Made by a program: the position numbers and the translations under genes. From positions 31,948-95,947 of the IMG/VR virus record IMGVR_UViG_3300037247_000847: a DNA stretch of 64,000 nt. One strand, given 5' to 3'. Below, one piece after another: positions 32,216 to 58,610 of the stretch. Origin of the DNA: a virus. The notes under the pieces are model-generated. The model saw only the letters and a program-made list of their open reading frames with translations, was not told the origin of the DNA and searched no databases. The first letter of the stretch is position 1, and the number at the start of each line of letters is the position of its first letter.

Positions 32216-32806
32216 TTAAGTTCGTCCTAGCCACACTTTTCCAAAACGGTCAATCTGACGTAATTCATCTGGTGTTTTAGTTTCTTGGTCTGGAACCTTA
32301 AGCTTGGAAGGTTGCGCCCCTGTTTTCTGGTCTTGATATTGACCAGAATAAGGTTGCTCTGTATGTTCGTCTAGATAATGAAACACAATCTGCGCGATAG
32401 GTGTACCTGCATTGAGAGTTAAGTCTTCTTTATCCAGCTGACGTCCTTGTGTAATTTGTTCGTCTCCTTGTTTCCAGGAATGGAGTAGGTGATATGAAAT
32501 TTCCAATGTTAGATATCCTCCCCACCCAGGATCTATAAAGGTATTCTGGACCAAAACACCAGCTCTTGCTAGTGAAGACTTGTCATGTACTACACCACAG
32601 ACGTTGTCTGGCATAGTAAAGTGTTCCATAGTAGATGCGAGTGTGACCAAACCTTCGTATAGATAAGTATCTTCTGCTAATCTCACATCATACGATGCTG
32701 CACCACAACCATAGCTAAGGTTAGTCGATTCGTGTATGGTTCTCTCACAAAATGGTAGTAAGATTTTAGCTTTCTTGATCGATTGGTACGACAACACACT
32801 CATCAC
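32216..32806 (-). CDS. dcd: dCTP deaminase (dUTPase-like trimeric fold)
   Basis: SYG...ASYDVRL, DKSSLARAG, IDPGWGGYLTLE, GTPIAQ, YSGQYQDQ. Confidence 0.88.
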   Translation of the reverse strand: MMSVLSYQSIKKAKILLPFCERTIHESTNLSYGCGAASYDVRLAEDTYLYEGLVTLASTMEHFTMPDNVCGVVHDKSSLARAGVLVQNTFIDPGWGGYLTLEISYHLLHSWKQGDEQITQGRQLDKEDLTLNAGTPIAQIVFHYLDEHTEQPYSGQYQDQKTGAQPSKLKVPDQETKTPDELRQIDRFGKVWLGRT

Positions 32807-37708: not shown

Positions 37709-38728
37709 TTATTCTTCCAAAAATATACTTCCAGTTTGGACTAAGTCACTTCCTATATCATATCTGCTGCAGAATGCATCGAACGTTTCTGTATGGGTTC
37801 TAATCTTGGACTCGTTTTTAATTCTCTTATCATCTTTTCTTTTGGTGTCGTGCATTTCTTTTAGAATTACGCTGTGTAATATTAGGTCAATTTTCTTAGC
37901 TGTTTTCCGGACCTGATCTCTATGCTCAGGCCAGTTACCAAATTTACTACGAGGAAGATGAATACGAACTTTTGCTCTATCACCACTCTGCAACTTACGA
38001 CGCATCTTGTTGAGGTCTTTTCCATGACTAAGGTCGAGCATAAGCTTTCGTGGTGCTGAAAACTGCACATCCTGTGTCTTAAATTTACGATTTAACAGAA
38101 GCACTCTAGGCTCGAATTGGTCTCCATAATGAATATGATAAGGACATCCTATGTATGTAATAGGACCAAGCTGTTGTGGAACGTGTATATCACCGGAGAA
38201 GATTGGACATCCAAAACGTTGAAATCGTCGAGAGCTAATACCCTCTAATACTCTTCCTGATTCAGATACTGATCCACGAAACGTTTGGTGCATAAATATT
38301 ATACCAACTGATTCCATCTCAGGTTTGCTAAGGATACCCCAGTCCTCCCCAGGTTTGCGGGAGTGGGGTAGAAACAATCTGTTATGATAGATCGTTGGTG
38401 TTGATATATAGGTTACATTGGTATATTTTCCGAGAAAACCGAAGAATGGTTGTATAGGGTCTACATCGTAGTCGTGATTTCCACAGAGTATATACACGTT
38501 AAAGTGTTTTGCTAAAGACCTTATGCAATCCACAACTTTATTTACAAAAAAGTCTGCGTGATAGTTTTTTCTATTAGTAAGATCACCAAGTATTATTACA
38601 GTACCCACTTTGTTTCTAAAGTGTTTTATGATCCATGGAAACAAATCGAAGCGATAACTGTCTTCCCCTTTTTCTGTAAGGTGAAGATCTGTTGTCAACA
38701 ACGCAACTGGATTGAATTTAGATGTCAT
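37709..38728 (-). CDS. sbcD: SbcD/Mre11/T4 gp47-like nuclease
   Basis: TDLH, LGDL, GNHD, GDIH metallophosphoesterase motifs; adjacent to sbcC. Confidence 0.88.
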   Translation of the reverse strand: MTSKFNPVALLTTDLHLTEKGEDSYRFDLFPWIIKHFRNKVGTVIILGDLTNRKNYHADFFVNKVVDCIRSLAKHFNVYILCGNHDYDVDPIQPFFGFLGKYTNVTYISTPTIYHNRLFLPHSRKPGEDWGILSKPEMESVGIIFMHQTFRGSVSESGRVLEGISSRRFQRFGCPIFSGDIHVPQQLGPITYIGCPYHIHYGDQFEPRVLLLNRKFKTQDVQFSAPRKLMLDLSHGKDLNKMRRKLQSGDRAKVRIHLPRSKFGNWPEHRDQVRKTAKKIDLILHSVILKEMHDTKRKDDKRIKNESKIRTHTETFDAFCSRYDIGSDLVQTGSIFLEE

Positions 38729-39266
38729 AACTTAGTTTCCAACCATTTCTGTCCGAGGTACGGTACCATTTATAGTGAGTCATAAAATTTTGAACCGTAT
38801 TAGGGACGTTATCTCCGTTGGTGTTAAACCAATATTCAGCATTTGATCTACCTTCGTTAGCATTACAATTACCTAGTGCTTGCTGGTCCATAGACCAAAG
38901 CCAAAACTCCAACATGTCACATGCTTTAAGCCACTTAAGATCTTCTGCTGATAGATCAAAGTTTATCCCAAGACTGGACTCTATAGAACTTTCAAATCTT
39001 TTAAGTTCATCCATTGTATCCTTTCCTAATAACCATTTAGCAGGTGATGGGATATCTCCTATCCATCTTTCGTGTACATCATGCCATAGTCCAGCTAGTA
39101 TGAGATCTCTGGATGGGTTAGGATGAAGAATAGTTAATAGTGTAGCTACACCCCAACTATGTTCAGCAATACTGTAGCTACCGTGATGTGGGGTAGTATG
39201 ACAACGTTCGGTACTCCCACCTTCGCGGATAGCCCGGACCCTATGAATGGTTTTTAGGATAGACAC
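38718..39266 (-). CDS. HD-domain deoxynucleotide phosphohydrolase (YfbR-like)
   Basis: SIAEHSW, HDVHE...GDIPSPAK, KACD.LE. Confidence 0.82.
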   Translation of the reverse strand: MSILKTIHRVRAIREGGSTERCHTTPHHGSYSIAEHSWGVATLLTILHPNPSRDLILAGLWHDVHERWIGDIPSPAKWLLGKDTMDELKRFESSIESSLGINFDLSAEDLKWLKACDMLEFWLWSMDQQALGNCNANEGRSNAEYWFNTNGDNVPNTVQNFMTHYKWYRTSDRNGWKLSYDI

Positions 39267-44910: not shown

Positions 44911-45063
44911 TCACGTTCTATCCATCCAATAACACTTTGGACAACATTTTCCTCCTGGAAGATATACTACTAGATATTCGTAACATTTAGGACAAGTTAT
45001 TTGTGGGGACCTAAATAGCCACGTAGAAAATAACCAGTCCCAAAAATTATTCCAGATACTCAT
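44911..45063 (-). CDS. Small CxxC/CxxC protein (below the cutoff)
   Basis: Hand translation with CPKC...CCPKC (50 aa), TGATG-coupled to the polymerase. Confidence 0.5.
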   Translation of the reverse strand: MSIWNNFWDWLFSTWLFRSPQITCPKCYEYLVVYLPGGKCCPKCYWMDRT

Positions 45064-47807
45064 CAGAACCCACACTCCTTCCGGTTTAAAAGCCCAAGAT
45101 CATCTGAGTAAATAGTAGACACTTCCTCTTGATCAAACCAATTTGGACCCTTACCTATTTCGAGACATAGTGGTACTGTAATCCAAGGAAAGTGTTCGCA
45201 TTGTAGCATTTCATATGCTATGAATTCTAGGTCCCTATCAATAGTTTTCTTTGGTATCCAGAATCCTAATTCATCATGTACCATTAGACGTGCTTGGAAC
45301 TGCCACTCTTCTAGTTCTTGTGCAGCCTCTGATAGACGATCCATTGCGTGTAGGACAATTTCTACCTCCGCGTTTTGAATAGGTGTATTGATGATCTCAC
45401 CATGGTCTAATGGACCATGGCGCCTCCACCCGGTTGGTCCTTCTACATAACCATTATCATCGTAAAAGTTTCTCATGCGCTTCTGATAACTACTTAACCC
45501 GGGCATCTCTCTAAAAAATTGTCTAATGAGTGGTTTTAGATCTTCTACTGGAATATGTAGATATTCAGATACTGATTTTGCAGTAGCTCCAAAAATTAGG
45601 GGGAACGTCCACTGGTTCTTTACATCTGTGCGGAACTTTTTCAGTGCGTCTTTGTCTTTGAGAAACTTCTCCCCACCTATTCGACGTGGATATGCACGGG
45701 CTAGTTTCTTTGTCCACCTCATGTGAATGTCATTTCTATCCCAGAGATAGGTACAATACATTTTGTCATGTGATAGCATACCTGCAATCCGTGCTTGGAT
45801 TTGGCCGTAATCTATTGCCACGAACCAGCAATCGTCTTCAGTTACGTGACTTGGTAGGTTATAATCAAATCCACTTTTTATCCTTTCACGTATAGCACGG
45901 GTTGGTGATATGAACAAGCGGCGTAGATCTGAGTAACCTTCATCTCGTTTAGGCCAGAACTGTTCATTCGGGAAAGAACAGGATGTCCTCCGTGTTACAA
46001 GAAACTGAGTTTGAAGAGCTGCGTGTGTCATACCATCAGGCCAAATACACAAGCCAGTTGCTTTCTTTTTGGTTATTACTACCTTTGGAGCATGATCCTT
46101 CGGTAGTAGAGGATCAACATATTTTGACTTGTTTCCACGTACAGCGCGATACTCACGTATTTTCTTGGCGATCTTGAGTGGGATCTTCTCCAAAACTGCG
46201 TCTTCTGTTGAGTATTTTGCTTTTCCCTTTTCGTCTTCTCCCACCTTACATTCTTTACGACCTAGGACATTTTTTAACATCAACAAGACGTCTTGTGGGG
46301 ATGAGGGTTTGAATCTTCTCCCCATCCTCTTCTCAAATTTGGATGCTGCTGAACTATTCTGGAACCAAGTCTCAAGCTTAACTATTTTGGGACTATATTT
46401 TTCATCAAATCCAAGTAAGGCATCAAAGTCAATCAACATTCCGAAGTGAGATTTAAGTGCAACTGTAGGTACGTGCCGCACTTGTTCTCTATACACATCT
46501 AATAATTTTTTATATTCTATCACTTTCTGTTGTACAACAAATAAAGCATGTTCCCATTTAGCATCTAATGCATTATAAAGTAGAACTTTAGGTAGAGGTT
46601 CATTATCTAAGTTACTAAGATTAACTGGTACCACATCCTTTAGCCGGAAACCAAAGTTGGTTAATATTAGAGCATCGAGGTTGGTGGTACCACGTTGTCT
46701 ACCGAGTACATATGCTTGAGCCATTGTGTCGTGCCAAGTACAGCATCTAGCTAAATCTTTTCCAAAGAACTCGATAGTCCATTCTAATTCAAAGAATAGA
46801 TGGTGTGCAATTTTCTCAGTATCTGATCGGAGAAATGAAATCCAAGCTTGCCATACTTCCTCGAACTGGCTCTTAGTCCATTCAGCTTCTCTATGTTTTA
46901 TTGGAAATGCAATCGTATCCTTCTTAGTTCCTACAGCAATAGTGAGTATGCGTGCGTTTTGTCCATAAGGTCGAACCTGTTTTTCTACAATAGCAGGTTT
47001 CTCATCACTAGCTGTCTCGTAGTCAAAAGCAACTTTGGATAATTTAGCATATTGATCCAACTTCTTTTTTATTAGCTTGACATCTTTCCATCCTCTTTCT
47101 CCAGTAATGATTTTAATATTACTCTTGATTTCATCTTCACTGATAATAGTAGCTTTTGGAAGTGATTCTAATTCGTTGATTGCACGTTGTATATCCCGAT
47201 CAAATGTTCGCTCCTGTTCACTAGGAATTTCTCTCCGAGTTTTGGGATGACGTCTACGCATTCGGCTAAGGTATGATGGGTGATAAAATGGATAATACCA
47301 ACAGCAGTGATTTCCTACTTGTATTGGAATACGTAGGCCACGCCAAGAAGTAATCCTTTCCTCACCTATTGCCCACTTGAGTGGGATACCACCAAAACCA
47401 AAGATCACTTTTGGTTTGGTCTTTTCTATATCTGATATCAGACGTGGTCGGCAGCAGGTTATCTCAATAGATGTTGGAGTAACATTCTTATCTTTGTGAC
47501 AATTTATGGTATTATTCAAACGAGCAATTTCTAGTAGCTCTTCTGGTATATATTCTCTAAGTAAATGTCCTGACTTACCAATAAATTGTTCATTGAGCTT
47601 ATCTTCTTCTACTCCTGGTCCCTCCCCTAAAATGTATGCCAATGGTTTCTTGGAGCCAGTTGCATCCATCTTTGGATGACGTAGATCCTTAACGCGATCA
47701 AGAGGACATGCTTTGCAGCCCATTTTAAATAATGTATGCATCGAGAATTGTCGTGAGCTACCACGTTTCTTAGTACTTTCATCTTCATCGAAGAGCCAAC
47801 CCCCCAC
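45063..47807 (-). CDS. polA: Family A DNA polymerase with N-terminal family-4 uracil-DNA glycosylase-like domain (SPO1-type)
   Basis: CKACPL, GEGPG.EED...FIGKSG, HPSY (UDG); DYET, YNALD (3'-5' exo); DYGQIQAR, R...K...FP..FG, NTPIQ, VHDEL. Confidence 0.9.
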   Translation of the reverse strand: MGGWLFDEDESTKKRGSSRQFSMHTLFKMGCKACPLDRVKDLRHPKMDATGSKKPLAYILGEGPGVEEDKLNEQFIGKSGHLLREYIPEELLEIARLNNTINCHKDKNVTPTSIEITCCRPRLISDIEKTKPKVIFGFGGIPLKWAIGEERITSWRGLRIPIQVGNHCCWYYPFYHPSYLSRMRRRHPKTRREIPSEQERTFDRDIQRAINELESLPKATIISEDEIKSNIKIITGERGWKDVKLIKKKLDQYAKLSKVAFDYETASDEKPAIVEKQVRPYGQNARILTIAVGTKKDTIAFPIKHREAEWTKSQFEEVWQAWISFLRSDTEKIAHHLFFELEWTIEFFGKDLARCCTWHDTMAQAYVLGRQRGTTNLDALILTNFGFRLKDVVPVNLSNLDNEPLPKVLLYNALDAKWEHALFVVQQKVIEYKKLLDVYREQVRHVPTVALKSHFGMLIDFDALLGFDEKYSPKIVKLETWFQNSSAASKFEKRMGRRFKPSSPQDVLLMLKNVLGRKECKVGEDEKGKAKYSTEDAVLEKIPLKIAKKIREYRAVRGNKSKYVDPLLPKDHAPKVVITKKKATGLCIWPDGMTHAALQTQFLVTRRTSCSFPNEQFWPKRDEGYSDLRRLFISPTRAIRERIKSGFDYNLPSHVTEDDCWFVAIDYGQIQARIAGMLSHDKMYCTYLWDRNDIHMRWTKKLARAYPRRIGGEKFLKDKDALKKFRTDVKNQWTFPLIFGATAKSVSEYLHIPVEDLKPLIRQFFREMPGLSSYQKRMRNFYDDNGYVEGPTGWRRHGPLDHGEIINTPIQNAEVEIVLHAMDRLSEAAQELEEWQFQARLMVHDELGFWIPKKTIDRDLEFIAYEMLQCEHFPWITVPLCLEIGKGPNWFDQEEVSTIYSDDLGLLNRKECGF

Positions 47808-47811: not shown

Positions 47812-48093
47812 CTATCCTTTCCTTATAGAAAGCAGTTCTTTACATGTGTATGTTTGGTCGGAAAACATATTGACCCGAAAAGCACCGAGGATACGAGAAG
47901 CTACATATTTACTTGGTTTCTCTCCATCAGGATTGTGGTCCCTCCTTAATATATTTAGTGCACTGAATGGCGAATGTGCCAATACTATTCCTACGTGTTC
48001 AATTCTAGTTAGGATACTTTTCGAGTATTTACTATTATAGATGGCACATACTAGATACTTATGGGGTTTTGTCTTTTTGTTTATTTTTGACAT
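47812..48093 (-). CDS. Hypothetical protein
   Basis: 93 aa ORF with RBS. Confidence 0.55.
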   Translation of the reverse strand: MSKINKKTKPHKYLVCAIYNSKYSKSILTRIEHVGIVLAHSPFSALNILRRDHNPDGEKPSKYVASRILGAFRVNMFSDQTYTCKELLSIRKG

Positions 48094-48110
48094 TTCTCAT
48101 CTCCTCTGTG

Positions 48111-49196
48111 TTATCTGTTAGCAACCACGTAGATGAAATCACCCGATTTGGATCGCATTACAGTAGTGTTACTACCAAAGGATATTTCTTCACATTTATC
48201 TAGTTGCTTGATTATAAGGTCAGCTGCGATTTTGGCACTTATATCAGATGTGTTCTCACCATCTTTAAAATCTACCAAATCTTTTAATGAGGTTCCATCT
48301 TTTGACCTAGTATGAAAGAGTATTCCTGTCTCTTCAGAGGTAATGTGACAAGTACCCTCATCACCTATCGTATTGGCTCTTTTTAGGGCAGCAGCAAGAT
48401 CTTCAGTTATTGGTATAAAGTCTAATTCCTCTGAGACTGTCTCCTCAAACTTACCAACAATGTTGGGCATTTCGACATTGATTAGCTTACCTACAATAAC
48501 ATTTTCTCCATCACCCCAATCTAAAACAACGCTATCCTCATTAATGTGAAGCTTTGCTGACATTCCAAATTCTTTAGACATCGGTACAGCAGCTTTGCAG
48601 AATGATGAAGGTATTGAGATTTGTTTGTTCTTTTTTCTAAGAACTCCCAAGAGCTTTCTTGATCTTGATTTCAAGTCATGGACATCAAAATGGGAGATTG
48701 TAGATCGTCCTCGTCCTACCCCGTATACACCTAATGAGGCACCAAACGTAAGTATGATGCCACCTATCCAACTTCCTAATCCAGTATCGGGAGACTGACT
48801 AGAACACATCTCGATAGCTGTAAAGAAACTCTCACCTACAGTCAATGATATTGCTTGTTCTACATCTGGAAATTCAAATGGCCATTCTTCATCTGGAAGT
48901 GACGACAATAATAGTTTGCTAGACCCACATCTGATGATAAGATTTCCTTTCTTACTAATAGCAAGTTTGACCTCTTTGGTGTTACAGGCTGATAGAAAGC
49001 CGGTTAATTTCTTACCTGGAACGATTACCTTCTCGAATGCATTTACAGATAAGCATGTAGCTATCACGTCATTGGATGCTATAACGTGAGTACCAGTAAA
49101 CCAAAAACTCTTGAGTATTGGTAAAACAACCTCATTATCACTAAGAAGAGCAGGTGCTGCTAATTTTAGTGTATCGAGAAGTTCCTCTCTTTTCAT
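48111..49196 (-). CDS. dnaN: DNA sliding clamp (beta-clamp-like)
   Basis: 361 aa; REELL..L...., PIL...., three-domain length; near the polymerase and clamp loader. Confidence 0.65.
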   Translation of the reverse strand: MKREELLDTLKLAAPALLSDNEVVLPILKSFWFTGTHVIASNDVIATCLSVNAFEKVIVPGKKLTGFLSACNTKEVKLAISKKGNLIIRCGSSKLLLSSLPDEEWPFEFPDVEQAISLTVGESFFTAIEMCSSQSPDTGLGSWIGGIILTFGASLGVYGVGRGRSTISHFDVHDLKSRSRKLLGVLRKKNKQISIPSSFCKAAVPMSKEFGMSAKLHINEDSVVLDWGDGENVIVGKLINVEMPNIVGKFEETVSEELDFIPITEDLAAALKRANTIGDEGTCHITSEETGILFHTRSKDGTSLKDLVDFKDGENTSDISAKIAADLIIKQLDKCEEISFGSNTTVMRSKSGDFIYVVANR

Positions 49197-49201
49197 GTTG
49201 A

Positions 49202-49819
49202 CTACTCCTCTCCTTCTGGTCCAGGTATTGCTTCCGCCTGTGCATCTATCCTTGCTTCTGTTAGTGCATCATCATCAAAGTTATCATCCTCTGGCTTGCT
49301 TTTAGGTAAGCGTGGATCGTCAATTTGGTCAGGGTGATAGGTAGGATAGGGGGGGTCTGAATCCTCACCCTCATCAAAGCCGAATGGGTGTTTCATACCT
49401 GACGGTTCGGTTTCATCTGTTAGTGCTAAAGGAGGGAAACTCATATTCAATTCCTTGATTCTGGTAACATGACCAATTTCGATCATATGCTCTACCAAAA
49501 TTAGAAGGTATCCGACCAAATCCAGGCAGTCATCTAATATAGTTTCATTTCGACCATCTGCTTCGAATACATCGAAGATGTCGTACTTTGCTGGATGTCG
49601 TGTCTCGCAGGCCTGTTCGATACGATCCCATTTTCTAGCTATTACCATAAAGGCTCCAGCTCCCCCACGCTTTCGCCAAGAGCTTCCATACTGAATGTCT
49701 TTATCATTTACGAACTTTACCAGTTCTTCAGCTATGAGATTTAGGCGGTGGTATTGGCGGCCATATCGTTTCATATCTGCATTAATCATGACCAGCTTAG
49801 ATGCGGGCTTGTCAGACAT
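49202..49819 (-). CDS. MazG-like nucleotide-modification-associated protein (Nmad1/DUF1599-like)
   Basis: K..QYG.SW...G.....ARKWDR....D...DL.GY. Confidence 0.65.
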   Translation of the reverse strand: MSDKPASKLVMINADMKRYGRQYHRLNLIAEELVKFVNDKDIQYGSSWRKRGGAGAFMVIARKWDRIEQACETRHPAKYDIFDVFEADGRNETILDDCLDLVGYLLILVEHMIEIGHVTRIKELNMSFPPLALTDETEPSGMKHPFGFDEGEDSDPPYPTYHPDQIDDPRLPKSKPEDDNFDDDALTEARIDAQAEAIPGPEGEE

Positions 49820-49877
49820 TTCTCTTCCTTTCTTTGTTCAAGGTTCAACCGTTTGCATCCTTTAGTTAGTAATACAG

Positions 49878-50954
49878 CTAGTGTTTAATTGAACGCCTCT
49901 TCATCCAATGTCGAGCTGCGTGCAACCAGTCGATATGTTGCGTGTTTGGTAACAAATAATCTAGTTCCCAATCAATGCATTCAAATTGATTGGGATCGTC
50001 TTTACGCCTTCGAAATATCATATACGCTTTTACCATAGGGATCGCGACTCTTGAAAAGATAGGGTTACGCCATGGATACATATAATACATATCTATTTTT
50101 GGTTCGTCTTCTTTGGTAGCCCCCAACCGTGCGTCGTGCCATTGAAAAAAGTGATGTAATTCTTGATCGAATTTAACTGGATCGTAGATTAGCTGGGTTG
50201 GTTTGACTACTCCAGTGGAATATTCATCGTTATGATATGTAATAGGTGGCCGACCAATTGAGGGGGGTCTTAATGATTTAAGTTTATCAAAAATTTCAGT
50301 GTAGGCATGAAAGTTGTTGCTAATTTGATATAGTGATCCAACATCTATACCAAGATTGGCAGCCAAATACTCTTGTAGGATAGAAAATTGTACCGCATTG
50401 GCCCCGGCTGCACCCCAAATTACATCATTGGACCTGCAGAATACGGTCATATCTAAAAGCTGATTATTGATCCAAGGTGTAACGATGAGATTACACGGGA
50501 TATCTTTGACATTCTCATGCTCGTGTAGATCATCTTCACAGTCCCATATCTGAATAACAGCGCGACGAGATTGTGGATGTTTTTTAAGAAGTATTTCAAC
50601 TTTGATCAACTGATCAATTGGCCAATGTAGATGCCATCTATAACCATAAGCCCCGTGAAAGGTTGTTCCATCATCAGAGAAGTTTGACATACGACGAACG
50701 TAGTGAGTCAAAGTTGCAACATCTCGTCTGCCAGCTAGCATCCATAGTGCTTCTATAAGATGGAAAAAGGGATTGGCATCCCTAATAGGTGAGAAGAGTA
50801 CTCTTTCCATAGGCTTTCTATAGACAGTAGTGACAGGAGTTGGTGCTACAATAACCTCACCTGCTCTAGATGAGTTACGTTCTCCTTCTTTCTCAAGATG
50901 TTGAAGCATTTCAGGAAGTGCTTCATTTACGTTCCTAACATCTAGTACGTGCAT
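49878..50954 (-). CDS. Thymidylate synthase-family enzyme, probable dUMP hydroxymethylase
   Basis: NPFFHL.E.LWML.G, GAYG.R, SRRAV, DIPCN, RSND..WG, NFHAY; ATG at 50954 after AAGGAG; linked to 5hmdU-modification genes. Confidence 0.85.
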   Translation of the reverse strand: MHVLDVRNVNEALPEMLQHLEKEGERNSSRAGEVIVAPTPVTTVYRKPMERVLFSPIRDANPFFHLIEALWMLAGRRDVATLTHYVRRMSNFSDDGTTFHGAYGYRWHLHWPIDQLIKVEILLKKHPQSRRAVIQIWDCEDDLHEHENVKDIPCNLIVTPWINNQLLDMTVFCRSNDVIWGAAGANAVQFSILQEYLAANLGIDVGSLYQISNNFHAYTEIFDKLKSLRPPSIGRPPITYHNDEYSTGVVKPTQLIYDPVKFDQELHHFFQWHDARLGATKEDEPKIDMYYMYPWRNPIFSRVAIPMVKAYMIFRRRKDDPNQFECIDWELDYLLPNTQHIDWLHAARHWMKRRSIKH

Positions 50955-50955
50955 G

Positions 50956-51222
50956 TTATATCTCCTTTTCCCTCTGTACTGTACGCGCTCGGATTTCACT
51001 TGCTACACGAGCACGAAATTCCGAACAACCATCTAGCGCCGCTGCTTCGACCAATTCTGCACACGCCTCACGCTCACGCTCCCGAATGATTTCATTCTCG
51101 CGTTTCCAGGTTTTCTCGGGAATGATGACCACCCGGTCAGAACCGTTTCCTTCGAGCGTTTCTAGAGCGTGGGGCTGATCAGCCGCTCCGATGTAGATGA
51201 CTAGGGGACTATCTTCTGTCAT
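50956..51222 (-). CDS. Hypothetical protein
   Basis: 88 aa; ERERE.CA..V...IRAR motif common in phage accessory ORFs. Confidence 0.6.
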   Translation of the reverse strand: MTEDSPLVIYIGAADQPHALETLEGNGSDRVVIIPEKTWKRENEIIREREREACAELVEAAALDGCSEFRARVASEIRARTVQREKEI

Positions 51223-51246
51223 GGCTCATACCCTCCTCGTAAGTGG

Positions 51247-52071
51247 TTACACATCAAACCAAGGGAGTTGACTATGTCGACCCCTTTCTCCTCCCCATGG
51301 TACATCGTCTACATGTCTTATAGCATTGTAATTTATTAATTCAATGTCAAAGGATTCTATAGATGATAGATGTTGATTTTCAATCCAAAACCTACGTATG
51401 TTTACTTGAGACACGTTTGTAAAGGTAATGTAAAATGGTACTCCTGTAAATGATAACATTCGTAGATTACGTTCAAACCTCTGCCAGTTGGGATGCTTAC
51501 GTGTGTTATCCATCCACTCCTTGCGATCATAACCTTTGATATTGACTGCTATAAGCACGTGGTCTCTTACACATTTTAGATACTGTAGTGTGTCCGATGA
51601 ATAATTAACCTCAGTAAGCATCATATCTGAATGGAATACCCATTTTCTATGTAGTAACTTTTTCCGCCGTGCAAGTTCTCCAATTAACTCTGGCCAGCGA
51701 ACCATACTTAGAGCAGGGGCACCACCCATAAGATGAAATACTTGTAGGTTAGACTCAATAAACGCGTCAACCATTTGTGCAGTAGATACCTGCTCATATT
51801 TACCCCACACACCTTCTCGCGTGACGTAACAATATGGACAGTCTAAGTTACAACCAAACAACTGAACGACAAACTGATGTTGTGCTTTCCATCCGAGACG
51901 TTTCATGCATATTTCTGAGAATTGGTCGTATCCTCCTCCTCCGCGTTTAGTGTCACAAGATCTGTATAGTCCCCCATTCAGAATATCTTCCTCACGAACA
52001 TCGAGACGTTGACCCCTACTTAGTGGAACCACTTTCCAATTCTTTTTGGGATCACGAGTTCCCATTACCAT
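51247..52071 (-). CDS. Radical SAM protein (minimal)
   Basis: GCNLDCPYCYV (CX3CX2C), HLMGGAP. Confidence 0.82.
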   Translation of the reverse strand: MVMGTRDPKKNWKVVPLSRGQRLDVREEDILNGGLYRSCDTKRGGGGYDQFSEICMKRLGWKAQHQFVVQLFGCNLDCPYCYVTREGVWGKYEQVSTAQMVDAFIESNLQVFHLMGGAPALSMVRWPELIGELARRKKLLHRKWVFHSDMMLTEVNYSSDTLQYLKCVRDHVLIAVNIKGYDRKEWMDNTRKHPNWQRFERNLRMLSFTGVPFYITFTNVSQVNIRRFWIENQHLSSIESFDIELINYNAIRHVDDVPWGGERGRHSQLPWFDV

Positions 52072-53263
52072 TTCTCAGACCTTTCTGTTGACTAGATATT
52101 ACCAAATCAGCAAATTCATCGAAACCAACTATGTCTTTGTCAGATAGGTTGCTCACTACATAGTCTCTAGTTCTCGTCATTTGAGTATTGGTAAGATCCA
52201 ATAGCCAACGTGTGCGCTCCTCTGACATATCTATTTGTAAGTCTTGATACAACTGTAGCATACTCTCAAAGACATTAGAAGTTAGGTCACTACAGTTTAA
52301 TAATACAGTGTCCCGAGTCTCATTACAAATTGTATTATAGAAAGCAACGAATTCTGTACATTCCCTCCTTCGGAACTTCACGTTCGCTTTGTGCCATTCA
52401 ATAGATAATGATTTATCAATTCCGGTCTTAGTCAACGTGCTTTCTCGTGAAAGTGCTACATAGGAGGATAACATATCTTTGTGGTCACGTACCAAAAACA
52501 GGAGCTTTGCATACGGAAAGGACTTGAACAATGCACGGTAAAATGACACATCTTCGTTTTCCTTTGTGACCCAAATTCTGTCCTTGCCTCGGTAATATGC
52601 TACTTTTCTTATTACACGCATAAAGACTTTTAGTAGACGTTCCTGGTTTTTACTATTGAGAGTGTTGAAGTGAGTTAACTTATCCAAAAGTGAGGTAAAC
52701 GGAAATCTCCGGAATACGAAATAATGATGATAGAATTTCTCTTCTAGAAATATACCATGTTCTTCATGATTACCATAAAGGTGAGGATGCATCTGACTGG
52801 CTAGAAGACCAGCAGTATCCTTATTAGACCAATAATTCCAACCGTTGATCCAATCTCTAAGTCTTAAACAATCTAATAAGTACCATATACATATATAAGG
52901 CCAACGCCATTCTAGATAGGTAACTGCAAAGAACACATCCTTATCATCGGCCAACAACCGATGTAGGAAGGTAGAACCACTTCTGGGTTGGCTAATAATG
53001 AAGACAGGATCCTTGAGACTTACGCAGTTCAGTTGTCTACTAAATATCACTTCATCTAATAACCACAAGGTACAATGTAGTGGGCTCAATACTAGGTCAC
53101 GCAGCAAGTATGTGAGTAGTCGCAGCTTGACACGTTTAGGAAGCTGTTTGTCTCTACACGTTGCTCGGAAGACACACCAATACGAACCCCAGTGTGATAG
53201 GGGATTGATATAGCCTAGAAGAACAGCTACTGTGCAGATTAATATAATAATAGAGAGAAGCAC
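52052..53263 (-). CDS. PAPS-dependent sulfotransferase family protein
   Basis: 5'-PSB loop PVFIISQPRSGSTFLHRLL; 3'-PB motif LVRD..DMLSSY; hydrophobic N-terminus. Confidence 0.78.
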   Translation of the reverse strand: MLLSIIILICTVAVLLGYINPLSHWGSYWCVFRATCRDKQLPKRVKLRLLTYLLRDLVLSPLHCTLWLLDEVIFSRQLNCVSLKDPVFIISQPRSGSTFLHRLLADDKDVFFAVTYLEWRWPYICIWYLLDCLRLRDWINGWNYWSNKDTAGLLASQMHPHLYGNHEEHGIFLEEKFYHHYFVFRRFPFTSLLDKLTHFNTLNSKNQERLLKVFMRVIRKVAYYRGKDRIWVTKENEDVSFYRALFKSFPYAKLLFLVRDHKDMLSSYVALSRESTLTKTGIDKSLSIEWHKANVKFRRRECTEFVAFYNTICNETRDTVLLNCSDLTSNVFESMLQLYQDLQIDMSEERTRWLLDLTNTQMTRTRDYVVSNLSDKDIVGFDEFADLVISSQQKGLRNGNGNS

Positions 53264-53275
53264 TGCTCATTCCCT

Positions 53276-53440
53276 CTATTTCGTACGCCAGAACTCTATG
53301 GCCATCTGGATGTCATGAGTCAGTTGGTTGCAAAGATTGGTGTGAGATTCATCGTCTGCCTCCATGACGATTTCGCATCCACGTTCAGCCCGCCGTTCAT
53401 GGACGTGGGCGATGGCTCTGGCATTTTCTTTCGGTGTCAT
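53276..53440 (-). CDS. Small hypothetical protein (below the cutoff)
   Basis: Hand translation MTPKENARAIAHV...EFWRTK (54 aa), AAGGAGG RBS. Confidence 0.55.
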   Translation of the reverse strand: MTPKENARAIAHVHERRAERGCEIVMEADDESHTNLCNQLTHDIQMAIEFWRTK

Positions 53441-53450
53441 CACGCCCTCC

Positions 53451-53681
53451 TTAGTTTTCGTCGTCCTCGGTCGTCATTTCAACAGGCTGAACCTGGGCAG
53501 CATCCTCCTCCCCACAGAAGAATTCGCCAGCGGAGTTGAATGCCATCACCCGATTGTTGTCGTGATGATACTCGCTCTTGAAGCAGAGCAATTCCGGGTT
53601 CTCCTGTGTCACGAACGGTCCTGGTGGTGCTTCCTTTAGTGAGCAGGGCCAGCCTATCGGTGTGATGATTTTCTGGATCAT
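53451..53681 (-). CDS. Hypothetical protein
   Basis: 76 aa, AGGAGG RBS, ATGA-coupled. Confidence 0.6.
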   Translation of the reverse strand: MIQKIITPIGWPCSLKEAPPGPFVTQENPELLCFKSEYHHDNNRVMAFNSAGEFFCGEEDAAQVQPVEMTTEDDEN

Positions 53682-54298
53682 GTTAGCCTCCTTTCTAACA
53701 ACTGATATATTGCACGCATGGGTTTACGATAGTCAATGATAACTGTTTCTTCACCCTCACTCTCGAACTTCTTACGTGTAGCTTCGGTTGCAATGAACTT
53801 TTTCTCTACATGCTTAGTTCCACTACTACCCCTTATTCTACCAGAAGCAGCAGTCTTATTTTTGTTACGAGCTTCGATCCGTTCGTAGCAGACTTCTAGT
53901 GGGGTATCCATATAGCACCAAGTAATACCTCCGAGCTCTTGTGATAATTCATAAAACCTTCTGAATAGACCACTGACGATAAAACCCTCAAAGAATACAT
54001 GACCTTTACCTGCAAATTTTCTTACTATATCACATACATCATCCAATCCACCAAAGTGCTTCATGACATAATCTGCACCCCCAGACATAGTTACATAGGA
54101 GCCGACGAAATAGACTGGGTCTCCCTTATACATACCTTTATACCCTATTACCCGCCCTATGAGACGACCTGGCTCCGGGTCTGCGTATAGAGGAGTAGCG
54201 TTGCTCTTCTTCATCAGCTCCCTAATAATCCAAGACTTGCCTGATCCGTTGCAGCCACGAATATTCACGATGCGATATTTATTGCGTTTTCTAGACAC
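53678..54298 (-). CDS. P-loop nucleotide kinase of base-modification clusters
   Basis: NIRGCNGSGKS, GGAD, FEG, DTPLEVC.ERI..R. Confidence 0.8.
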   Translation of the reverse strand: MSRKRNKYRIVNIRGCNGSGKSWIIRELMKKSNATPLYADPEPGRLIGRVIGYKGMYKGDPVYFVGSYVTMSGGADYVMKHFGGLDDVCDIVRKFAGKGHVFFEGFIVSGLFRRFYELSQELGGITWCYMDTPLEVCYERIEARNKNKTAASGRIRGSSGTKHVEKKFIATEATRKKFESEGEETVIIDYRKPMRAIYQLLERRLT

Positions 54299-54373
54299 CG
54301 TTTTTTCCTCCGTCTTCGGTGCATATGATGCGTCTAGTTTAATGGTTTGTAGGGCTTCTCCCTGATGTCTTTT

Positions 54374-54724
54374 TCAATTAGACGTTGGCGCTAGACGTTG
54401 GCGCAACTCCTCGTGGCGGATCTTAATGGTACGCATCATCTCGGCTTCACCATCTGGGCCAAGGTTATTCAACAACTTGTCGTAGTCTACATCAATACGG
54501 CTGCCAAACTTGCGGCTGATACCGGCTGCCTCCACAGTCGAGACAAAGGCACGGAGCGTATCCTGCTGTTCAATTAAACCCTTATGGCTTGCCGCCGCCG
54601 CACCAAGCGCGTTAATCACCCGCTGCAACGTCAGATTAATAGCAATTTGCTGTGCCAATAAGTTTTCGAGCACCTGTGGCAAGCTAAATTGCACCCGGAA
54701 AAAACACCTCAGTCCCTTCAACAT
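54374..54724 (-). CDS. Hypothetical protein (paralogous segment with 1822..2106)
   Basis: ATG at 54724 after AGGAGG. Confidence 0.6.
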   Translation of the reverse strand: MLKGLRCFFRVQFSLPQVLENLLAQQIAINLTLQRVINALGAAAASHKGLIEQQDTLRAFVSTVEAAGISRKFGSRIDVDYDKLLNNLGPDGEAEMMRTIKIRHEELRQRLAPTSN

Positions 54725-54987
54725 TGTTTCATCCTCCTTCTTCGGTTCAGCATAATGCGTCCGAGTTCCTTGACACTCACTTCTACAGCTCCTGCCTTCA
54801 CGGCTAGCGCGCGCTTGGATAGACATATGTCAAAATGGCTGCGAGGTGTGCCTGGATATTGATGCCACTTGCGTTGTACACCAATCTTGTCTACCATAGT
54901 TAACAGCTCTTCGTCGCTATCGGCTATCATGTGACACATGATTAGGCGTCCGAAAGGAGCACGCATGTTGTCTACTCGAACGGTCAT
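54718..54987 (-). CDS. DUF4031-like protein
   Basis: V.VD......GR..MCHMIADS.EEL......IG..RKW.Q....HFD....KR..A...GA. Confidence 0.75.
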   Translation of the reverse strand: MTVRVDNMRAPFGRLIMCHMIADSDEELLTMVDKIGVQRKWHQYPGTPRSHFDICLSKRALAVKAGAVEVSVKELGRIMLNRRRRMKQC

Positions 54988-55913
54988 AACGTTTTTACCA
55001 CCTTGACGTTACCAAAATCGTTTACCAACCTCCTTCTATCTCTATAGACACCTTTAAGTTGTCCCCGAGGTTCTGACCATCCCCCAAATTCACCTAATAG
55101 TCTTATATCAAAAATCACCCCTCTTGCTTTCCATAATATTTTAGATAGGTTGTTGTCATGTAGCTTTAGTTGTTTAAGGTCTCTGTCAATATCATGACCG
55201 TGGTAGTATTTTCCGTTAGTCAATGACTGCCAATCACATAACATACTTTCTAGTTGGTCTAACCCGTTGACTGGCGCACCGAAGTCTATAGTTACTCGTA
55301 ATAGATCTCGATGTACTTTATTATTGTTAGCACATATGTCCCAACCTAGTCCTGTTAGTGTGTTAAGACCAGCTATCGGCCCTGCTGTCGCGCCTGGCTT
55401 TGTTCCAATATCAGGAGCGGTGATGGGGTATGAATGAACGAATTTCATCATGTCACAGAACTTGTAGCTAGACCAAGGTCCATGATAGGGTAATTCCGAA
55501 ACAGCTTCTCTAATTTTAGCCCAACTCTTTTCACGGTTATTACTGACTAGGTTGTCTACCCATGAAACTAAATCCCCATCGGTGAGTGATACCAATGTAT
55601 TTATCTGATTAAGTGCCTGCTCGTTGCCTCGAAAGCAACGACGTTGTTTGAAATAGGGAAGGTCATTACTCCAGTCCTTCTTTCGGATGATATCTGGTTT
55701 TGGATATCGTTTCCAAGCTTGAACAGCACTACCAAGATGGTAGTACAATAAATAAATACATGTGAACCAAAGTGCAGTGTTACGGTCTAATTTGAGTTTC
55801 TTATACATGTGTCTTAATATAGGGAATTGAGGGTCCAAATCTCCGGAGAGGATCATTGCGCGGCCGAACCGGGCAAAGTCTCTTAGTTCTTTAGATTTAT
55901 CTTTGTACCACAT
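54984..55913 (-). CDS. Amino acid:DNA transferase (aGPT-Pplase2/AADT, glycosylase-like fold)
   Basis: GDLDP.F, RRCFRG, GPWSSYK..D, ESMLCDW...YY.GHDI; cluster context. Confidence 0.7.
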   Translation of the reverse strand: MWYKDKSKELRDFARFGRAMILSGDLDPQFPILRHMYKKLKLDRNTALWFTCIYLLYYHLGSAVQAWKRYPKPDIIRKKDWSNDLPYFKQRRCFRGNEQALNQINTLVSLTDGDLVSWVDNLVSNNREKSWAKIREAVSELPYHGPWSSYKFCDMMKFVHSYPITAPDIGTKPGATAGPIAGLNTLTGLGWDICANNNKVHRDLLRVTIDFGAPVNGLDQLESMLCDWQSLTNGKYYHGHDIDRDLKQLKLHDNNLSKILWKARGVIFDIRLLGEFGGWSEPRGQLKGVYRDRRRLVNDFGNVKVVKTL

Positions 55914-55919
55914 AATAGA

Positions 55920-56019
55920 CCTATCTTAGGACCGCCTCCAAGGCCTGCAGGGGAGGATTTGACCCTTTAAGGGTAAAAACCCCGTTAATTTAGTCTCCGT
56001 TACCTGCGGGCCTTGGAGG
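55920..56019 (-). repeat. Dispersed structured repeat, copy 5
   Basis: About 3 differences from copy 1 over ~98 bp; overlaps the 3' end of the upstream ORF. Confidence 0.92.
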
Positions 56020-56538
56020 GGTCGGTAAAACGGTACATATTTCGTCAAATAGCTCCGAAGGGATATTTGGGTCAGTAGTAACACCAATTCCCCCTGAGTA
56101 ATCGTCAGTAAATAGGCAACATTGTTTTACCTTCTCTAATACTATTCGCAGGCGCCACTTCTCGTCATCGGCGGCTTTGGCGCGGTCTTTCCATGTGATA
56201 CGAGCCTTCGCACCGTCTATACCTGCGGTCGCTTCACCCATCCAATATTCTGAGGTTTTCTCCAACTCCGCCCCCCGCTCCCGTGTCTCCTTTATAGTTT
56301 TAACTAATCCATTACACTCCTCCGCTGTAACCAACTCATGTAGTTCATGGAGTTTTTCACTTCCTTGTGTATATTCTGGAATTTCTTCCTCGTAGAAACC
56401 CCAAATCAATTGACCTTGTAGCTCCTCGATCTTGTTGGCTACTTCGTTTAAGAACATCGTACCCTGTTCAATTGTCATAAATACAATGCTGGAGCCACGC
56501 AGTCGTTCAATGATGTCAGTCGTTGTGAGGTCTACCAT
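55990..56538 (-). CDS. Hypothetical protein (C-terminus supplied by repeat copy 5)
   Basis: ATG at 56538 after AGGAG; ends PPRPAGNGD*. Confidence 0.6.
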   Translation of the reverse strand: MVDLTTTDIIERLRGSSIVFMTIEQGTMFLNEVANKIEELQGQLIWGFYEEEIPEYTQGSEKLHELHELVTAEECNGLVKTIKETRERGAELEKTSEYWMGEATAGIDGAKARITWKDRAKAADDEKWRLRIVLEKVKQCCLFTDDYSGGIGVTTDPNIPSELFDEICTVLPTPPRPAGNGD

Positions 56539-56548
56539 GATATATCTC

Positions 56549-57469
56549 CTACCACTCATTTGATTTTTTCGGGACGAAACGTTCTAACACACCTTGTCCA
56601 AGTTTGATCCTTTCGATCTTGTCAAACTCACAAAGCCAATGTTCGACCTCTCGCATTTCCCAAGGTGGTGTATGTAGACCCCACCTTGGCTCTTGAGATT
56701 TTGCTAAGAGACCTTGCATGGCTTCTAATGCATTCTTTTTCGGGAAGGAACAACCTTCAATCTGCCTCGTCTTCGGTTGATACCCCCAAAGTCGGGTCAA
56801 TCCTCGAAGAGCCCCCGGCCCGGCATTTGCCCAAGTCATAATATCAGGGGCGTTACGTAGGTATACCGTATGACGAAGATCTGAGACGACTTCATAAGCC
56901 AAGAAGTCTCCAAGACCTCGTTGACTACGAAGCCATTTCCACATGTCTTCTAGACTATTGGTATTGATAATCCAAGATGGATGGCGTAGTTCGCGGTAGA
57001 GAGGGGTGAGTACAGAATTTACGAGATAGATAGCACGTTCGCTCCCTTTTGGGCATGAACCGAGTAGATATGCACCTGTATAGATTTTCTTACCTCCATC
57101 CTTACGACGATGCAAGACCCCCAATACCTTTTCTGGGTTCCAACGTTTGGGAAAGCCTATCTCCTCTAAGGTGGGAGGCCAATTGATTAACCTAGCTAGT
57201 GCCATTGCAAAAGGTAGGTTGGGATGATCTGCATAAGGCTCACGCCAATTCTCCCGTAACCAAATAGTCACCTTATCATGTTCTCTAAATAAATTACAGA
57301 ATTTGTACTTCTGGAAAATAGGGTCATCCGTCCATGGTGGGATTTGGCTAAATTCCCTATCCCTACGTAAGCGAATATTGTAACGCTCCTTAGCCGTCTT
57401 GAAATATCGACGTAGCTGAGTGTATTTAGGTCCACACGCTACCTGCTCGGATGTTAGTGTAGTTGTCAT
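56549..57469 (-). CDS. 5-hydroxymethyluracil DNA kinase, helical family (aGPT-Pplase1/5-HMUDK)
   Basis: ER..I..RR...PPWTDDPIFQ.YKFCN..RE.DKVT, AR.INWP.TL, YTGAY, F.AYEVV.D, GPGA.RGL, EHWLCEFDK. Confidence 0.82.
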   Translation of the reverse strand: MTTTLTSEQVACGPKYTQLRRYFKTAKERYNIRLRRDREFSQIPPWTDDPIFQKYKFCNLFREHDKVTIWLRENWREPYADHPNLPFAMALARLINWPPTLEEIGFPKRWNPEKVLGVLHRRKDGGKKIYTGAYLLGSCPKGSERAIYLVNSVLTPLYRELRHPSWIINTNSLEDMWKWLRSQRGLGDFLAYEVVSDLRHTVYLRNAPDIMTWANAGPGALRGLTRLWGYQPKTRQIEGCSFPKKNALEAMQGLLAKSQEPRWGLHTPPWEMREVEHWLCEFDKIERIKLGQGVLERFVPKKSNEW

Positions 57470-57520
57470 AACGACCTCACTTTCTCGTTGTTCGGATCCT
57501 ATATAACAATACAGCGACGA

Positions 57521-57565
57521 AGAAAATAATAAGGAGGGAGGAACGCAATGAACCCCCCTCCTTTA
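57521..57565 (-). terminator. Intrinsic terminator after the acidic-protein gene
   Basis: - strand AAGGAGGGGGG..CCTCCCTCCTT followed by ATTATTTT. Confidence 0.7.
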
Positions 57566-57589
57566 ATTAGATATTCAGGTCGAAGAATG

Positions 57590-58585: not shown

Positions 58586-58610
58586 TTTTACTGCACTCCT
58601 TGGTAGTTGG

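Follow-up and report, generated by a model that had tools for sequence, protein, structure and literature searches.

The complete 96-kb genome of an uncultured, metagenome-derived phage contains a thymidine hypermodification cluster of the 5-hmdU type, in which a PAPS-type sulfotransferase is encoded between the DNA kinase and the hydroxymethylase. We tentatively propose, with a confidence just short of even, that the DNA of this phage carries a sulfated thymine derivative and that the sulfotransferase tailors the side chain attached by the amino acid:DNA transferase (AADT). The genes are listed in Table 1, with positions in the window, i.e., the stretch of 64,000 nucleotides that was analysed. 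The seven ORFs that an earlier sequence-only reading had placed in this cluster were all confirmed at their coordinates, co-oriented on the minus strand.

Table 1. Genes of the putative hypermodification cluster and associated genes in the window.
Positions	Strand	Length (aa)	Product	Basis or remark
32216..32806	-		dCTP deaminase/dUTPase-like enzyme	Pfam DCD (9.6e-17) and dUTPase (1.9e-07)
38718..39266	-		HD-domain YfbR-like 5'-deoxynucleotidase	Pfam YfbR-like and HD_3
45063..47807	-	914	UDG-family A DNA polymerase fusion	Pfam UDG and DNA_pol_A
49202..49819	-	205	Protein with acidic tail	Possible Nmad1/DUF1599-like nucleotide-modification-associated domain
49878..50954	-		Putative dUMP hydroxymethylase (thymidylate-synthase homologue)	phrog_5131 and orthology
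51247..52071	-	274	Compact radical SAM enzyme of a phage family	Radical_SAM (PF04055)
52052..53263	-	403	PAPS-type sulfotransferase (Stf1/Stf9 structural class) with N-terminal hydrophobic anchor	Sulfotransfer_3
53678..54298	-	206	5-hmdU DNA kinase, P-loop	Orthology to PaMx11 gp49
54718..54987	-	89	Small DUF4031 protein	PF13223 (1.4e-22); variable accessory ORF
54984..55913	-	309	AADT (amino acid:DNA transferase/aGPT-Pplase clade 2)	PF18724
56549..57469	-	306	Helical partner of the 5-hmdU DNA kinase (aGPT-Pplase clade 1/HMUDK_hel)	PF18723

Judged by its genes, the cluster is a genuine 5-hmdU-type hypermodification cluster. The genome holds orthologues of the hydroxymethylase, the kinase, its helical partner, AADT and the HD nucleotidase of the Pseudomonas phages PaMx11 and YuA, which bears out the pathway named in the sequence-only reading; we infer that 5-hmdU is incorporated in the phage DNA. 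The modified base is 5-AcNmdU in PaMx11 and 5-NedU in M6/YuA (PMC8989533, PMC11472151), and as in these phages the genes belong to one replication-module operon beside the polymerase. The hydroxymethylase is 42% identical to PaMx11 gp51 and 45% to YuA gp17, a protein with the annotation deoxyuridylate hydroxymethyltransferase, and it matches phrog_5131 at 2e-106 and Pfam Thymidylat_synt at 7.6e-19. Its ORF extends to 50999, with Met16, at 50954, as the likely start. Orthology points to a hydroxymethylase rather than a methylase activity.

Two ORFs of the cluster had been read as kinases, the 306-aa protein as the one of the HMUDK family. Both ORFs are real, but their identities were swapped. 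The 306-aa protein is rejected as a kinase and is instead a partner of the aGPT-Pplase1 type: it matches Pfam HMUDK_hel (PF18723, 1.9e-46) and is approximately 40–41% identical to PaMx11 gp50 (40%) and YuA gp14, the genes downstream of the kinase in their own phages. Sequence comparison assigns the role of 5-hmdU DNA kinase to the P-loop protein of 206 aa. Over 95% of its length this protein shares 32% identity with PaMx11 gp49 (pairwise E 3e-26), with its Walker A motif (GCNGSGKS) aligned, and it is 29% identical to YuA gp13. Its match to PF18748 (HMUDK_HMUD1) reaches 27.6 bits, just above the cut-off of 27, and its matches to APS kinases are below significance.

AADT is recognised by Pfam ADDT (PF18724, 1.6e-11) and by sequence matches in the PDB to two entries, 25qc, whose annotation is that of an amino acid:DNA transferase domain-containing protein, and 8z2m, listed as a glycinyltransferase. 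Glu222 and Cys226 of the E-x-x-L-C motif are invariant in two alignments, and this Glu/Cys pair is essential according to Lee et al. (PMC8989533). The identity to AADTs of the PaMx11/YuA type is 21%, while the nearest relatives are found in IMG/VR (38–44%) and in actinophages (approximately 30%). These nearest relatives sit in clusters of the TET/JBP and ParB type. In contrast to its counterparts in PaMx11 and M6/YuA, the AADT described here resembles the TET/JBP-associated clade more closely than it does the glycine transferases.

Besides these core enzymes, several genes may supply or assist the pathway. The dCTP deaminase/dUTPase-like enzyme probably supplies dUMP, and the HD nucleotidase, an orthologue of PaMx11 gp52 and YuA gp18 (41% identity), may have a role in clearing the nucleotide pool before replication. 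The UDG-polymerase is approximately 30% identical to the Vibrio phage SSP002-like polymerases, and UDG-PolA fusions are known from phages with T-modified genomes (PMC13697223). The 205-aa protein is retained downstream of the hydroxymethylase in relatives. It had been labelled MazG-like, a label that finds no support: no MazG model matched, there is no match in Pfam, NCBIfam or the PDB either, and a weak language-model (Atlas) lead points to DUF1599/Nmad1 instead (score 0.90, TM 0.38–0.5). The DUF4031 ORF is shared with one relative only (L041) and also adjoins a homologue of the radical SAM gene in L073.

The tailoring genes set this phage apart from PaMx11 and M6/YuA. The sequence-only reading had seen no PLP decarboxylase, and the same is true for the entire 96-kb genome, in which no homologue of the known PLP, M6-type radical SAM, FAD lyase or acetyltransferase tailoring enzymes was found (tblastn, E ≤ 0.01). 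The space between kinase and hydroxymethylase is taken here by the sulfotransferase, alone or together with a small, unrelated radical SAM enzyme. The gene order differs as well, being partner-AADT-kinase here and AADT-tailoring-kinase-partner in PaMx11 and M6/YuA.

The sulfotransferase can confidently be assigned to the PAPS enzymes of the Stf1/Stf9 type, on the basis of its sequence and its predicted structure. It matches Pfam Sulfotransfer_3 at 8.4e-15, and its model (pLDDT 92.5) shares its fold over nearly the full length, with 341–349 residues aligned, with the mycobacterial enzymes Stf9 (PDB 2z6v; Z 28.2, rmsd 3.7 over 349 residues) and Stf1 (PDB 2zq5; Z 25.7), whereas other sulfotransferases score a Z of approximately 12–13. 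Identity to Stf1/Stf9 is only 14%, but a sequence profile matches Stf1 at 4e-09. The P-loop-like 5'-PSB motif and the Arg/Ser pair of the 3'-PB are common to these enzymes: the QPRxGxT loop (Q92-P93-R94-x-G96-x-T98) shows no variation among 27 sequences and can be aligned with the loop of Stf1, and the likewise invariant R259 and S267 align with its Arg and Ser. Because of this fold (Z 28 to Stf9) and the invariant PSB and PB motifs, the enzyme looks catalytically competent. PAPS is the probable donor in this family, since bacterial relatives adjoin APS kinase, CysD/CysN and CysQ; the phage genome itself contains no PAPS-making genes. One distant match carries the name menaquinone sulfotransferase. 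In contrast to Stf1/Stf9, the phage family sits in a DNA-modification operon and has an additional, strongly hydrophobic N-terminal segment. This segment, to which the sequence-only reading had drawn attention, was confirmed, with a Kyte-Doolittle value of 2.9 across 19 residues, and is family-wide, as the anchor and the subsequent basic run are conserved in phage and bacterial copies.

An unrelated insertion, as had been considered for the sulfotransferase, is contradicted by its evolution. The gene is retained between kinase and hydroxymethylase in approximately 20 related metagenomic contigs and is under purifying selection (dN/dS 0.18–0.28). Its identity to the relatives (77%) is the same as that of AADT, the hydroxymethylase and the partner, i.e., it evolves at the rate of the core enzymes. 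In 18 of the 20 contigs it directly follows the kinase, at a spacing as small as 12 nt, and its ORF touches or overlaps that of the hydroxymethylase in several of them. Synteny among these relatives, which are 70–87% identical, is mostly inherited, so that they provide few independent observations. Four divergent copies (49–51% identity) are found on contigs exactly as long as those of kinase-partner homologues, which suggests that they share contigs with the kinase partner. Co-occurrence with the kinase is seen in 18 of the 20 relatives and, with the kinase partner, on the four divergent contigs, but of the 80 AADT loci in IMG/VR that are closest to this one, none has a sulfotransferase. Nor does the homologue list place one on the contigs of 62999, 85133 and 34313 bp that carry similarly distant relatives of the kinase partner.

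The phage and divergent copies form a single clade (SH-aLRT 100) nested within bacterial sequences. Bacterial relatives (30–44% identity) occur in Paraburkholderia, Variovorax, Enterobacter, Salmonella, Methylococcaceae and others, and these secondary-metabolite sulfotransferases have the length, the anchor and the invariant residues of the phage enzyme. Their neighbours are NRPS or ATP-grasp enzymes, a carbamoyltransferase, MFS or HlyD exporters and PAPS-supply genes, with neither kinase partner nor AADT at these loci. The NRPS/ATP-grasp clusters suggest amino-acid-derived substrates.

In the proposed route, the dCTP deaminase/dUTPase-like enzyme, the dUMP hydroxymethylase, the HD nucleotidase and the UDG-fused polymerase would provide for 5-hydroxymethyluracil in place of thymine before replication. 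The P-loop 5-hmdU DNA kinase and its helical partner would phosphorylate the hydroxymethyl group on DNA, and through AADT an amine or amino-acid nucleophile would displace the phosphate. The Stf1/Stf9-type sulfotransferase would stand in for tailoring by PLP, radical SAM isomerase, FAD or acetyl-transfer enzymes. Drawing on host PAPS, it would place sulfate on the AADT-attached side chain, its acceptor being either the donor, still free at the membrane and not yet transferred, or the adduct once AADT has formed it. The route would end in a sulfated thymine derivative, of either the O-sulfo or the N-sulfo kind, with the radical SAM gene as an optional extra outside the core route. The nucleophile, the substrate of the sulfotransferase and the final base are given here as proposed identities. 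A literature search yielded no paper that ties a sulfotransferase to thymidine hypermodification, in agreement with the sequence-only reading, which knew of no PAPS sulfotransferase in these pathways. Several observations argue against a sulfated base. A membrane anchor, present in all phage copies, is odd for an enzyme that would have to reach thousands of DNA sites; the nearest solved or named relatives act partly on lipids; and the slot also holds a radical SAM gene that is evidently independent of the pathway, so the site tolerates unrelated genes.

Since the anchor is conserved and the bacterial relatives belong to small-molecule clusters, a substrate other than DNA is a serious rival, although we consider it unlikely. 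The sulfotransferase would then be a membrane-anchored, cytoplasm-facing enzyme that originates from a bacterial secondary-metabolite cluster and sulfates a small molecule, lipid or glycan of host or phage, e.g., an envelope component changed in infection, and its gene would merely ride in the early/replication operon. The distribution of the gene speaks against such a passenger: all viral copies with visible flanks lie inside thymidine-hypermodification modules, and no copy turned up in 50,697 GenBank phages or in IMG/VR beyond this genome. The tight packing of the gene, whose junctions with kinase and hydroxymethylase often overlap or measure 12 nt, argues in the same direction. On the other side stand the anchor and basic run kept in phage and bacterial copies, the exporters and the NRPS or ATP-grasp enzymes beside the bacterial relatives, and the mycobacterial Stf enzymes as closest structures, while the adjoining radical SAM gene shows that pathway-independent genes can occupy this site.

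The radical SAM gene itself had been counted among the pathway members. Its product matches Radical_SAM at 1.1e-08 and has an invariant CxxxCxxC cluster motif (CNLDCPYC, residues 74–81), and 707 homologues were found; the fold is the generic one of the superfamily, with a partial TIM-barrel core and with PFL-AE and QueE as nearest structures (TM about 0.5). The 20-nt overlap of its ORF with that of the sulfotransferase, reported earlier, was confirmed (52052–52071), and an overlap of 17 nt is seen in L039, L040 and L049. This could mean that both enzymes tailor the appended group as a translationally coupled pair, an improbable reading in our judgement. Of the 16 close relatives in which the sulfotransferase is retained and the slot is visible, nine lack the radical SAM gene, which amounts to at least 3–4 gains or losses. 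In IMG/VR, 30 contigs carry the family in replication modules without kinase partner or AADT, and within 8 kb of the gene none of these loci encodes a sulfotransferase, a kinase or AADT; the kinase partner is also absent from three genomes with the radical SAM gene and a completeness of at least 90%. Coupling would agree with the location of the family in other phages, always among DNA replication and repair genes, and with the tailoring of glycinyl-thymine by a different radical SAM enzyme in phage M6 (PMC8989533). An identity as a glycinyl-thymine isomerase of the M6 gp53 type was rejected, however, as the protein does not resemble the M6/YuA/Pam3 enzymes in sequence and its family occurs without AADT. 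With YuA gp12 and Pam3 gp46 as queries, no match was obtained in this genome, and the radical SAM enzyme of the window has no tblastn match in the 50,697 phages. Patchy in relatives and present in many phages without the pathway, it is probably a dispensable accessory and not a dedicated pathway member.

Least probable, and in our opinion very unlikely, is that the sulfotransferase acts on 5-hydroxymethyluracil in DNA, yielding, next to the phosphate ester, 5-sulfooxymethyl-uracil as a second activated intermediate with sulfate as the leaving group, a second fate (another nucleophile or reduction to thymine) and packaged DNA without sulfate: sulfotransferase-fold enzymes in which sulfate has this role are represented in the structural comparison by CurM ST, olefin synthase ST and retinol dehydratase, and 5-hmdU has two fates in known phages, hypermodified base or thymine (PMC8989533), but the kinase and its partner are complete and conserved, so that a second activating enzyme is unnecessary, the membrane anchor speaks against a processive DNA enzyme, and the activating sulfotransferases score a Z of about 12 compared to 26–28 for Stf1/Stf9.

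The preferred reading therefore remains that of a sulfate on the AADT-attached side chain. If true, the resulting sulfated thymine derivative would be a DNA base that has not been described previously.

The window spans bases 31948-95947 of its source record, an IMG/VR virus of 95,947 bp with direct terminal repeats that is rated complete. Judged by its sequence, this genome has the whole known front end of thymidine hypermodification, and the finishing enzymes known so far are all absent from it. This follows from the presence of orthologues of the core enzymes, combined with the lack of any match in the whole genome to the YuA PLP enzyme, the radical SAM (rSAM) enzymes of YuA and Pam3, the PaMx11 FAD lyase and an acetyltransferase. 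The seven genes listed in the sequence-only reading are all present at the positions given there and, the 'MazG-like' protein aside, match the superfamilies proposed, and the ORFs of the sulfotransferase and the rSAM protein indeed overlap by 20 nt. Three labels had to be changed. The protein that was taken for the kinase is the helical aGPT-Pplase clade 1/HMUDK_hel partner, and the real 5-hmdU DNA kinase is the P-loop protein, as illustrated by its Walker A motif and its identity to PaMx11 gp49 (32% over 95% of its length) and YuA gp13 (29%), both experimentally characterised kinases (PMC8989533 Table 1; PMC13458397). The kinase gene is followed by that of the partner in PaMx11, YuA and Pam3. 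The 'MazG-like' label finds no match in Pfam, NCBIfam or the PDB; the single lead for this protein comes from a language model and points to DUF1599, 'nucleotide modification associated domain 1'. The thymidylate-synthase homologue, which probably starts at Met16, shares 42-45% identity with its hydroxymethylase counterparts in PaMx11 and YuA. The amino acid:DNA transferase (AADT) retains the invariant Glu222 and Cys226, both of which are essential according to mutagenesis of M6 gp51 and ViI gp247 (PMC8989533). Very probably, 5-hmdU would be incorporated into the DNA and subsequently acted upon by the kinase and the AADT.

Features of the replication arm and the thymidine-hypermodification cluster (window positions)
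Feature	Positions	Strand	Remarks
HD nucleotidase	38718-39266	minus	orthologue of PaMx11 gp52/YuA gp18
UDG-PolA fusion	45063-47807	minus	914 aa; family 4/5-type uracil-DNA glycosylase domain and family A polymerase
Putative Nmad1-like protein ('MazG-like' in the sequence-only reading)	49202-49819	minus	
Hydroxymethylase	49878-50954	minus	thymidylate-synthase homologue
rSAM protein	51247-52071	minus	
C-terminal extension of rSAM	51247-51280		ends in SQLPWFDV
Sulfotransferase	52052-53263	minus	
5-hmdU DNA kinase	53678-54298	minus	206 aa; P-loop, Walker A GCNGSGKS
Longer ORF	54374-54826		150 aa
DUF4031 ORF	54718-54987		89 aa; Pfam 1.4e-22
AADT	54984-55913	minus	
Partner	56549-57469	minus	306 aa
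Small ORFs	53276-53681, 55990-56559, 50956-51222		55, 76, 189, 88 aa; no family match

The closest relatives of the AADT are 38-44% identical in IMG/VR and approximately 30% identical in actinophages, and they adjoin TET/JBP dioxygenases, ParB-like proteins and P-loop kinases. Because the AADT is nearest to these TET/JBP-associated enzymes, the cluster is a mosaic and the donor substrate of the AADT is not readable from homology. Clusters with TET/JBP and ParB proteins (compared across the nearest AADT loci, L100-L179) correspond to post-replicative oxidation of T, and the AADT of the window stands with a pre-replicative dUMP hydroxymethylase and a kinase pair of the M6/PaMx11 type, so the module mixes the two known routes. 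The DUF4031 ORF runs over the stop of the AADT and conflicts with the longer ORF; in an unrelated viral locus (L073), 1.3 kb separate a homologue of it from an rSAM-family gene. The small ORFs between the enzymes are variably present in close relatives, while the surrounding enzymes are constant.

Beyond approximately 31.3 kb, all sizeable ORFs as far as the window's end are on the minus strand, and the region is that part of a tailed phage which serves replication and nucleotide metabolism. Among its products are a dCTP deaminase/dUTPase-like protein, a class II ribonucleotide reductase, SbcCD-like proteins, an HD YfbR-like nucleotidase, RecA and a UvsY-like protein, as well as a clamp loader, a UDG-PolA fusion, a beta-clamp, a Toprim protein, an SNF2 helicase and a DnaB-like helicase. 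The UDG-PolA fusion is approximately 30% identical to polymerases of the Vibrio phage SSP002-like group, and such fusions have been reported in phages with T-modified genomes (PMC13697223). Close membership in the SP15/YerA41 polymerase group, for which structures were published in 2026, was rejected, as the relationship is limited to a weak match of the UDG domain to 9qhs. A scan for promoters and terminators gave counts no better than shuffled sequence, so operon boundaries are not callable. Neither an Rfam scan of 44000-64000 nor a megablast of the region against 50,697 GenBank phages produced a match.

The sulfotransferase belongs to a family of 74 homologues of approximately 400 aa, unnamed except for a few distant ones. 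An alignment of 27 sequences shows an invariant QPRxGxT loop, Arg259, Ser267 and several acidic and histidine residues. The AlphaFold model (pLDDT 92.5) superposes best on the mycobacterial enzymes Stf9 (Z 28.2) and Stf1 (Z 25.7), compared to approximately 13 for other sulfotransferases, and a search by sequence profile also retrieves Stf1 (4e-09) and aligns the PAPS loops. Residues 1-19 have a Kyte-Doolittle mean of 2.9. Throughout the family this segment is variable in sequence but always hydrophobic and is followed by an Arg/Lys run, and we read it as a predicted membrane anchor that would leave the catalytic domain in the cytoplasm. The phage enzymes are more positively charged than the other family members, which are mostly unassigned metagenomic sequences, but this signal is weak and not decisive. 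One divergent homologue (P0041) has an insertion of approximately 50 residues near its C-terminus with a zinc-ribbon-like CxxC...CxxC spacing. The P-loop protein was also considered as an APS kinase feeding the sulfotransferase, and this was rejected on its PDB E-values of 0.3-0.6, the lack of a match to Pfam APS_kinase and its orthology to PaMx11 gp49. No genes for PAPS synthesis were found in the phage, which would therefore depend on a PAPS-making host.

The genomic neighbourhood suggests a link between the sulfotransferase and the pathway. A metagenome scan yielded 26 loci; in 22 of them, all from one marine-sediment data series, the encoded sulfotransferase is 70-87% identical. Upstream sequence is available for 20 loci, and in 18 of these the kinase immediately precedes the sulfotransferase, sometimes with a gap of 12-27 nt; on the 3′ side lies the rSAM gene or the hydroxymethylase, the latter overlapping the sulfotransferase stop in three loci. 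In the longer loci the order is constant: partner, AADT, kinase, sulfotransferase, hydroxymethylase, Nmad1-like protein and polymerase. Mean identity to these relatives is 77.1% for the sulfotransferase, 76.8% for the AADT, 77.3% for the partner and 76.2% for the hydroxymethylase, and the dN/dS of the sulfotransferase against four relatives is 0.18-0.28. As the close relatives form one lineage, this synteny is partly inherited. Four divergent sulfotransferases (49-51% identity) are found on contigs of 14,878, 11,257, 5,797 and 77,401 bp, and for each of these lengths, to the base pair, there is a contig with a partner homologue (59-67% identity). We infer co-location from the equal lengths in the two homologue lists, all eight proteins being singletons; the same check in the close clade gave six matches, three of which were confirmed directly by fetched loci, indicating that the approach works. 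For three contigs with similarly distant partner homologues (62,999, 85,133 and 34,313 bp), the sulfotransferase list has no entry, and the 80 nearest AADT loci of IMG/VR contain no sulfotransferase-like ORF by HMM or motif. The sulfotransferase is thus a lineage-specific addition to the pathway rather than a universal component. It had no tblastn match in the 50,697 GenBank phages, and searches of IMG/VR with the single protein and a profile returned the source genome only.

In 37 bacterial genomes that encode the family (30-44% identity), the kinase partner, AADT or rSAM gene is never nearby. Its neighbours in Burkholderiales and Enterobacterales are ATP-grasp proteins, MFS exporters, carbamoyltransferases, a heme-oxygenase-like oxidase and a Cys/Met PLP enzyme, and in other lineages NRPS C-A modules and HlyD proteins. 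APS kinase, CysD, CysN and a CysQ-like phosphatase recur as well. These neighbourhoods support PAPS as the likely donor and point to amino-acid-derived small molecules as the probable ancestral acceptors. In a quick tree, the phage copies and those of 49-53% identity form one clade (SH-aLRT 100) nested in Pseudomonadota sequences, as would fit a gene that was captured once and then kept for a long time. A cluster common to Enterobacter, Salmonella enterica, Paraburkholderia and Variovorax (L012-L015, L008, L009) combines the sulfotransferase with the first set of neighbours, supplemented in Paraburkholderia by APS kinase and the CysQ-like phosphatase; its make-up suggests a pathway, so far undescribed, to a sulfated, carbamoylated small molecule.

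The rSAM protein, which had been counted among the pathway enzymes, probably does not keep that place. It contains a CxxxCxxC motif, its compact rSAM fold is generic, with PFL-AE and QueE as the nearest matches, and it belongs to a large, uncharacterised family (707 homologues) of approximately 250 aa with a conserved N-terminal WKVVPLS...GGGGYDxF domain. Among close relatives with a visible slot it is present in 7 and absent from 9 of 16, and the sulfotransferase tree including the window (17 sequences, eight with and nine without rSAM) implies a minimum of three or four gains or losses. In 30 IMG/VR loci (L067-L096), several from jumbo phages, members of the family have genes for DnaB, RecA, exonuclease, SNF2 and nuclease proteins as neighbours, always amid replication and recombination functions and without a fixed partner, and no kinase, AADT or sulfotransferase occurs within 8 kb. 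From five of these rSAM-bearing records, three of which are 90% complete or more, the kinase partner is entirely missing. Since the gene is patchy in relatives, occurs elsewhere without the pathway and shows no similarity to the rSAM isomerase of M6, YuA and Pam3, it is treated as an optional replication-module gene, and its involvement with the modified base is unlikely. No tblastn match was found in the 50,697 GenBank phages. The C-terminal extension of the window protein, which close homologues lack, resembles a beta-clamp-binding motif, and the phage beta-clamp gene is located 2 kb downstream; across the module enzymes no consistent clamp-binding tail was seen, the QLPWF end being confined to this protein.

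Altogether, the gene-level case is solid, and the sulfotransferase probably, though with modest confidence, has a role in the pathway. Its substrate would be the AADT side chain, as part of either the free donor or the adduct, and the product a sulfated base, for which the chances appear somewhat below even. Given the predicted anchor and the family's small-molecule origins, the free donor is at least as likely to be sulfated as the adduct on DNA. More tentatively, virion DNA of this marine-sediment phage clade may contain a thymine derivative with a sulfate ester or sulfamate, made by the kinase, the AADT and the PAPS sulfotransferase. An unrelated membrane or small-molecule role is less likely but a serious rival. 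Direct sulfation of 5-hmdU, with sulfate as the leaving group, is improbable in a cluster that retains both kinase and partner.

The sulfated-base reading is attractive but unproven. In known thymidine hypermodifications, amines, amino acids or sugars are added. Described tailoring classes comprise PLP decarboxylases, radical SAM isomerases, flavin lyases, acetyltransferases and amidoligase and amidotransferase enzymes (PMC8989533). In the full texts searched, no paper names a sulfotransferase alongside hypermodification of thymidine or DNA, 5-HMUDK or aGPT-Pplase. If the sulfated-base reading is true, no genome has previously been known to contain a sulfated nucleobase, and no sulfotransferase to participate in DNA modification; the enzyme would bring a new class of tailoring enzyme and a strongly anionic group onto DNA. 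Sulfated DNA would bear on restriction evasion, DNA packaging, the sequencing of 'dark matter' phage genomes and enzyme tools for DNA functionalisation. If the target is instead a membrane or small molecule, a sulfotransferase in a replication operon would still be an unusual host-takeover function.
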